From UHGV virus genome UHGV-0121047: 18,551 nt of DNA, one strand, 5' to 3'. Every line of letters starts with the position of its first letter. Position 1 is the stretch's first letter. A model generated the notes under the pieces. That model ran no database searches. It was not told where the DNA came from and saw nothing but the letters and a program-made list of their open reading frames with translations. The position numbers were made by a program, and so were the translations under genes. Below, in pieces: positions 10,712 through 10,748 of this stretch. The stretch is from a virus.

Positions 10712-10748
10712 AAAGGGTATTGACAATGTGTTTGATACCCTTTAATAT
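10712..10748 (+). promoter_or_regulatory. Strong sigma70-like promoter embedded in a 9-bp inverted repeat
   Basis: TTGACA 10720-10725, 17-bp spacer, TAATAT 10743-10748; AAAGGGTAT (10712-10720) and ATACCCTTT (10735-10743) are perfect inverted repeats overlapping both hexamers. Confidence 0.6.

Follow-up and report, generated by a model that had tools for sequence, protein, structure and literature searches.

The window analysed here is an 18,551-nt stretch of the virus genome UHGV-0121047. A 1-kb query around the element described below matched 267 phage records, 252 of the 267 over most of its length, with identities of 98% or less. Almost all of these records are Felixounavirus, Mooglevirus and Suspvirus phages of Escherichia, Salmonella, Shigella and Citrobacter, Felix O1 among them, and by sequence the window is assigned to Felixounavirus. 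Across the locus (window positions ~3700-11370) a Felix O1 coordinate is converted into a window coordinate by subtracting 12832; elsewhere, indels shift the offset. Breakpoints between the two sequences lie at 3712-3731, 12134-12137, 12260-12263, 12546, 13453 and 13758-13792. The window lacks ORF29, tRNA-Arg and three HNH endonuclease genes (ORF44, 45 and 47) of Felix O1, and homing-endonuclease genes make up most of the indels. One break, a 90-bp difference, falls directly 3' of the -10 box of promoter P45, at 12257.

The element lies at the boundary between a protein-coding gene and an array of 23 tRNA genes. The upstream gene (9286-10701, plus strand) was recognized as a homologue of Felix O1 ORF42 from the list of open reading frames, Pfam matches (DUF2828/DUF7788) and existing annotations; public records name it either 'RNA-binding protein' or 'vWFA protein'. 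It is present in Felixounavirus and Mooglevirus and missing from the same junction in Erwinia Kolesnikvirus phages. Its stop codon, TAA at 10699-10701, lies within AAAAAGTTTTAAAAA, and the stem of a hairpin starts 11 nt further on, so that a read-through RNA of this gene would include the hairpin. The same DNA carries a putative promoter, henceforth P1. Between P1 and the first gene of the array, tRNA-Pro (10867-10946, plus strand), there is a 112-nt leader that carries a second putative promoter, P2. In the window, two tRNA-like Rfam matches that ARAGORN did not call were found at 11463-11545 (45 bits) and 12462-12540 (33 bits), the former at the position of tRNA-Asp in Felix O1.

The initial annotation had described a promoter embedded in a perfect 9-bp inverted repeat whose arms flank a 14-bp spacer and overlap both TTGACA and TAATAT, and this description of 10712-10748 proved correct to the base. 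The left arm, AAAGGGTAT (10712-10720), and the right arm, ATACCCTTT (10735-10743), are 100% complementary. In plus-strand RNA, U·G, G·U and A-U pairs extend the stem to 12 bp, with a 5' arm at 10712-10723, a 3' arm at 10732-10743 and an 8-nt loop, CAAUGUGU, at 10724-10731. Position 10734 is G in the window, hence the 9 bp, and A in Felix O1 and roughly half of the relatives, where the perfect repeat reaches 10 bp.

Both hexamers of P1 are woven into this structure. The -35 box TTGACA (10720-10725, plus strand), which is invariant in relatives, occupies the stem top and part of the loop. A 17-nt spacer follows, its 5' portion supplied by the remainder of the loop and its 3' portion by the 3' arm, whose last base is also the initial T of the -10 box TAATAT (10743-10748). 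A single variant has TACTAT as its -10 box. Upstream of the -35 box, an A/T-tract block resembling an UP element, AAAAAGTTTTAAAAAGGGTA (10700-10719), contains the stop codon of the upstream gene. P2 (as a direct repeat) and further Felix O1 promoters share this A/T tract with P1, and AAAAG(G/T)..TTGACA is likewise found at other consensus promoters of Felix O1.

The second promoter proposed in the initial annotation, at 10811, is likewise backed by sequence statistics and conservation. P2 (10811-10840, plus strand) lies 91 bp downstream of P1 and consists of TTGACA, 18 nt and TAAAGT with a TG extension (TG-n-TAAAGT). The two are partial duplicates, with 77% identity over a 35-nt block (TTTTAAAAA(G/A)G..TTGACAAT), and P2 has no hairpin (fold z = -0.65). 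An octamer, TACATAGA, stands 4 nt after the -10 box of P1 (10753-10760) and is repeated 3 nt after that of P2 (10844-10851). From standard promoter geometry, transcription would be expected to start at the C-A step of this octamer, at ~10755-10756 for P1 and ~10847 for P2. The pattern TTGACA-N16-18-TAnnnT occurs seven times in the window, compared with 1.16 ± 1.09 expected, a roughly 6-fold over-representation that none of 200 shuffles reached. P1 and P2 are thus well supported as predicted promoters, and P1 has the features of a sigma-70-consensus promoter with an UP-like element, oriented with the downstream genes and conserved in relatives.

Tandem P1-P2 promoters with UP elements are known from the rRNA and tRNA operons of E. 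coli. The arrangement found here is similar in having two sigma-70-type promoters 91 bp apart, A/T-rich upstream tracts and a stable-RNA operon downstream. The phage promoters differ, however, in lacking a G+C-rich discriminator and in the presence of a hairpin embedded in the first promoter. The RefSeq records of wV8 and Felix O1 carry no annotated regulatory features at the P1 site. The published list of Felix O1 promoters comprises P11, P41, P45, P102 and P117, and neither P1 nor P2 is included (PMC3185647).

The hairpin itself has been predicted before, as a terminator. Among the rho-independent terminators found by TransTerm, the Felix O1 genome paper gives in its Table 2 t42 (Felix O1 23547..23575, gggtattgacaatgtgtttaatacccttt, -10.2 kcal/mol) and its counterpart t43 on the complementary strand (complement 23542..23572, -9.2 kcal/mol) (Whichard et al. 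2010, PMC3185647). t42 corresponds to window positions 10715-10743 and is orthologous to the P1 hairpin, and t43 is its complement. In that work the terminators come from TransTerm only, and the overlapping TTGACA/TAATAT promoter is left unremarked (PMC3185647).

Is the hairpin more than a chance repeat? Taken alone, it is not: perfect 9-bp inverted repeats with loops of 3-20 nt number 1 in the window, against 2.3 ± 2.1 expected from dinucleotide shuffles. Non-random features are the position of the repeat on a consensus promoter, its local fold and its conservation. A 46-nt segment around the repeat folds with -12.6 kcal/mol, compared with -5.3 ± 2.3 in shuffles (z = -3.2), and only one shuffle of 200 was as good. 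The Felix O1 version is more stable (-13.5 kcal/mol, z = -4.1). A generic terminator scan flags the hairpin as terminator-like. By canonical criteria, the plus-strand hairpin would nonetheless make a weak terminator: its 9-12 pairs include only three G-C pairs, the stem being A/U-rich with G+C confined to GGG/CCC, and the loop measures 14 nt, or 8 nt if G·U pairs are counted. UUU lies inside the end of the stem and is followed by AAUAUGUU, so that the tail, made of UUU and the -10 box, is an imperfect U-rich tract with interruptions (UUUAAUAU).

The minus strand presents a more canonical picture, with a fold of -9.5 kcal/mol (z = -3.4) and a tail, UUUUUAAAACUUUUU, that supplies a proper U5 (UUUUU) after the hairpin. 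One might accordingly propose that the element acts mainly on that strand, as the terminator published as t43 (PMC3185647), and keeps antisense transcription from the tRNA region out of the upstream gene. We consider this highly improbable. No credible minus-strand gene or conserved promoter is found downstream, the A tract that encodes the U tail is already accounted for by an UP element, and the natural variants described below produce C·A mismatches in the minus-strand stem.

Conservation of the region was examined in an intergenic alignment of 35 distinct flanking sequences, drawn from IMG/VR contigs and GenBank phages, among them the most divergent of the records found. Among Mooglevirus relatives, 2 of 59 nt have changed in the P1 block (10702-10760), whereas the figures are 12 of 68 nt in P2, 6 of 23 in the leader and 7 of 52 at the 3' end of the gene. 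The contrast extends into the P1 spacer: five of nine positions are variable outside the right arm, some by transversions, and one of eight inside it. The loop tolerates transversions and varies at 10727, 10728 and 10731. The 5' arm (10712-10723) is unsubstituted in the 35 sequences, one phage having an extra G, and changes in the 3' arm are limited to A10737G (twice), G/A at 10734 and T10733C, all of which keep the pairing.

Pairing was analysed in a 61-nt P1 segment, for which ~60 relatives, a closely related sample, yielded 13 distinct variants. All 156 stem cells of the 156 examined form a standard pair. Four pairs vary, each on one side only: at 10718/10737, two lineages (one Felixounavirus contig and Mooglevirus Sf14) have U·G instead of U-A; 10721/10734 is either U-A or U·G; G·U becomes G-C at 10722/10733 in Suspvirus; and an A-U pair becomes G·U in the phage with the extra G. 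These variants pair only in plus-strand RNA. Read on the minus strand, the same changes amount to C·A mismatches, and the dyad of the duplex DNA is lost. The pattern points to a constraint on plus-strand RNA pairing; as no double compensatory change was found among the 13 variants, it is suggestive and not proof. A metagenome scan with a pattern that put no constraint on the right arm or on the flanking left arm recovered 13 loci and no new arm variants, and so added nothing to the power to see covariation in P1. It could also be that the left arm is conserved merely as part of the UP/-35 region.

The latter point bears on the most economical alternative, namely that P1 is a strong promoter and nothing else. 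The repeat would then arise by coincidence from an A-rich UP element (AAAG...) and a T-rich stretch before the -10 box (...CTTT), and its conservation would reflect promoter strength and short divergence. About two 9-bp repeats per window are indeed expected by chance, the upstream AAAAG(G/T) is a promoter feature of the whole family, P45 at 12229 shows a weaker version of the same symmetry (AAAGT...ACTTT), and the P1 stem offers no double compensatory change. However, the GGGTAT/ATACCC core of the stem is outside the consensus of the promoter family, the arm within the spacer is far more conserved than the remaining spacer, and all of the approximately five substitution events in the stem keep pairing. 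Together with the local fold (z = -3.2) and the enrichment of hairpins at promoters genome-wide, described below, these observations make coincidence a quite unlikely explanation.

The same variants weigh on the first of the two readings offered in the initial annotation, an operator. On such a model, a dimeric repressor of phage or host origin would use the 9-bp arms as its half-sites, cover the -35 box and the spacer when bound and shut off P1, thereby creating a temporal switch for tRNA expression. Perfect dyad symmetry overlapping the core promoter is what an operator would look like, the strong conservation of the arms includes a part of the spacer that sigma-70 does not read, and at least one HTH protein of the Cro/C1 type, the candidate ORF85, is encoded in the Felix O1 genome. 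Yet A10737G, which occurred twice, G/A at 10734 and T10733C all break the DNA symmetry while keeping the RNA pairing. In the 86 kb of the Felix O1 genome there is no second palindrome, nor does any further promoter have an exact half-site close by. The hairpins at other promoters have sequences and geometries of their own, so that no protein site is common to them. In addition, a distance of 23 bp separates the half-site centres; at about 2.2 helical turns, this spacing is atypical for HTH dimers. On balance, repressor binding appears very unlikely. The second reading of the initial annotation, a terminator or attenuator hairpin, fares better: predicted terminators t42/t43 had been published at this position, plus-strand pairing is preserved, and a sibling hairpin upstream shows compensatory changes.

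Several other candidates were tried and rejected. Sequences with one mismatch to AAAGGGTAT are in excess, with 18 in the window against 6.1 expected and none of 200 shuffles reaching 18; among them are AAAGGCTAT (four copies), AAAGGTTAT (four) and AGAGGGTAT (two). A family of operators or a regulon is not what they suggest, as their contexts are unrelated coding or repeat sequence and Felix O1 has no second palindrome. Host sites of the CRP or LexA type were discarded by eye, no match to TGTGA-N6-TCACA or CTGT-N8-ACAG being seen. Cruciform extrusion was also discarded by eye and on general knowledge, given the loop of 12-14 nt. An Rfam scan (E <= 1, over 8600-16200) gave no match in 10702-10866, and therefore no known cis-regulatory RNA or Y RNA lies there.

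The sibling hairpin just mentioned is found at the promoter of the upstream gene. At 9213-9257 (plus strand), a promoter made of TTGACA (9217) and TAAAGT (ending at 9246) lies inside a 13-bp hairpin whose sequence is unrelated to that of P1. GGUGU.UGACAGGCU pairs with AGUCUGUCACAUC, giving -15 kcal/mol (z = -3.7), and no U tract follows. The hairpin is kept in all relatives and is longer in Mooglevirus. In an Erwinia Kolesnikvirus phage, at the same place after the ORF41 homologue, ACAGACT/AGTCTGT is replaced by ACAGATAC/GTATCTGT. In the alignment, which extends as far as the Erwinia phage, 97% of cells are paired and three pairs have changed on both sides in a compensatory manner; the covariation score is above those of all 500 shuffles and all slid controls. 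As in P1, the G·U pairs of this hairpin work only on the plus strand.

Conservation with covariation of a hairpin that has no U tract raises the possibility that the P1 hairpin acts as RNA without terminating transcription. It might stabilize a 3' end against exonucleases after an RNase P or RNase E cut upstream of tRNA-Pro, or serve as a processing signal, with transcription reading through. The preserved plus-strand pairing, the weak U tract and the tRNA processing sites immediately downstream are all in line with this idea. By sequence alone, such a function is inseparable from attenuation; stem-loops of PeSL cassettes in a similar context did terminate transcription in a reporter (PMC2839356), and TransTerm scored the P1 hairpin itself as a terminator (PMC3185647). 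We therefore regard a purely stabilizing or processing role as unlikely.

Hairpins at promoters are not restricted to these two sites. Of 16 intergenic promoter-like sites in Felix O1, six have a fold with z < -2.4 (2298, 16645 on the minus strand, 22049, 23552, which is P1, 57704 on the minus strand, and 68355), while 6.7% of random windows have z < -1.8; the overall comparison of promoter folds with controls gave p = 0.05 (Mann-Whitney). The hairpins have unrelated sequences and differing geometry, and their placement varies: within the spacer, over the -35 and -10 boxes, flanking the -35 box, across the -10 box and +1, or after the -10 box as a canonical terminator. Current candidates, besides P1 and the promoter at 9217, are the Felix O1 sites 2298, 57704 and 68355. 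A set of 57-bp repeats (TTTACA-17-TAAAGT with TGGGGCTTA/TAAGCCCCA arms) provides further candidates, spotted by eye only.

The geometry of P1 is shared by Felix O1 57676-57720 (minus strand; z = -2.5), where AAGCTATAA/TTATAGCTT flank TTGACA, the 3' arm abuts the -10 box TATTTT, and this box doubles as a proper U tract. Two other promoter-like sites on the minus strand of the window, TTGACC-17-TATGAT (3807-3755) and TTGACA-17-TATCTT (5881-5832), are each followed directly by a canonical terminator hairpin and a T run, the hairpins being t29 and t35 of Felix O1. In these two, a start ~7 nt past the -10 box would land inside the 5' arm of the hairpin.

A precedent for hairpins of this kind exists in T4-like phages. 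PeSL (promoter-early stem-loop) cassettes have been described in RB49/phi1, PST and nt-1 (Arbiol et al. 2010, PMC2839356; Comeau et al. 2014, PMC4122927). In a PeSL, the upstream stop codon sits in an AT-rich stretch, a sigma-70 early promoter comes next, and a stem-loop overlaps the -35 and -10 boxes or lies between them; the stem-loops often contain a G run and then a C run, and the role proposed is to stop upstream transcription and restart it (PMC2839356). In a lacZ reporter, one PeSL stem-loop lowered expression to about the same extent as the rrnB T1 terminator (PMC2839356; PMC4122927). The cassettes are present in several copies per genome, with stem-loops in varying positions (PMC2839356).

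P1 resembles a PeSL in most respects. It is intergenic and begins at the stop codon of the upstream gene, within an AT-rich tract 5' of the -35 box; by sequence it has sigma-70 consensus -35 and -10 boxes; and it contains a stable stem-loop with the -35 box in the loop and the 3' arm abutting the -10 box. The 3' side is different, as a PeSL ends with a Shine-Dalgarno sequence and the start codon of an ORFan, whereas P1 leads to a second promoter and tRNA-Pro. The phage also belongs to the Ounavirinae and not to the T4-like lineage, and the P1 stem is A/U-rich apart from GGG/CCC. PeSL copies recombine and form mini-circles. Felix O1 has several promoter-hairpin composites, and P2 partly duplicates P1; the analysis yielded no sign of recombination or mini-circles between such copies.

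Altogether, the explanation that we consider probable, with some reservation, is that a PeSL-like composite cassette, made of a terminator or attenuator and a promoter, sits where the ORF42 homologue gives way to the tRNA array. RNA polymerase coming from the upstream promoters (8683 and 9217) would read through the gene and transcribe 10712-10743. The resulting RNA would fold into a 9-12 bp hairpin that, with the U/A-rich tail UUUAAUAUGUU (also the -10 region), would terminate or attenuate the upstream transcript, or at least define and protect its 3' end. The same DNA, as the host sigma-70 promoter P1, would restart transcription at ~10755-10756. Transcripts from P1 would begin downstream of the hairpin and enter the tRNA genes without it, and would therefore be unaffected by it. 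P2 would add a second start 91 bp downstream, and the tRNA array would be transcribed early. On the opposite strand, the hairpin with its UUUUU could also stop antisense transcription. Termination, start site and timing are what we infer in this scheme from the sequence anatomy and the comparative patterns observed.

RT-PCR data published for Felix O1 have a bearing on the timing. ORFs 45, 46, 48 and 49, in the tRNA region downstream of P1, peak at 5 min, and ORFs 41 and 42 peak at 25 min; ORF44, also downstream of P1, peaks at 25 min (PMC3185647). These times fit a transcriptional boundary at P1, albeit not a clean one because of ORF44. Our search of the literature on Felixounavirus and Felix O1-like phages found no mapped transcription start, RNA 3' end or usable RNA-seq, and the Felix O1 genome paper states explicitly that the organization and timing of transcription in such phages are still unknown (PMC3185647).

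The regulatory switch that the initial annotation placed at the entry of the tRNA array seems an overstatement. The P1 hairpin is real and conserved but ordinary, and it looks like a constitutive insulator combined with a restart signal. Two of its ingredients were already known, the hairpin as predicted terminator t42/t43 (PMC3185647) and the stop-restart design in T4-like phages. What is new, as far as the sequence can tell, is that a consensus promoter overlaps the published terminator so as to form a single element with it, and that the design recurs in the phage. Felix O1-type phages are widely used in Salmonella typing and biocontrol. A published terminator that is also a consensus promoter would explain how transcription passes many terminators, by restarting at overlapping promoters, and P1 would mark the true start of the early tRNA operon. 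The finding offers a simple annotation rule for Felix O1-type genomes and would extend PeSL-like architecture beyond T4-like phages, with no new mechanism involved.

A broader speculation is that promoter-embedded hairpins are a general and independently evolved design of Ounavirinae, in which they act as insulators and also as recombination joints that move gene cassettes, like the PeSLs of T4-like phages. We hold this view as tentative and rather doubtful. If hairpin joints do recombine, the ORF42 homologue could be a moved cassette. The junction of the Erwinia phage was considered as a P42/P1 recombinant, that is, a PeSL-style cassette loss; local alignments were only marginal (p ~0.04-0.06), and no such claim is made.

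Two additional observations were made outside the promoter region. A distant relative with 40% protein identity carries two modules of ~90-140 nt behind its ORF42 homologue, at positions 2845-3100. Both have a long closing stem and motifs resembling a tRNA T arm, GUGGUUCAAUUCCAC and GUGGUUCGAAGCCAAC; the first has a fold z of -2.3 and a sub-threshold tRNA match of 22 bits. By sequence, these modules look like tRNA-mimicking, Y-RNA-like elements placed beside a Ro/vWA-like protein. The spacer between tRNA-Glu and tRNA-Met in the window (11032-11122) has an ACAGCAA motif in common with them, and its fold is not significant (z = -1.0).

The other observation concerns the left end of the window, where a 1.5-kb stretch (~80-1600) without credible open reading frames lies between Felix O1 genes 23 and 24. 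It is dense in degenerate periodic motifs of 10-11 nt, present in many copies (CTTGTTAG, CTGTTAAG, CTATAGAG and GGGGCTATA). This stretch has an iteron-like appearance and might be an origin or packaging region.
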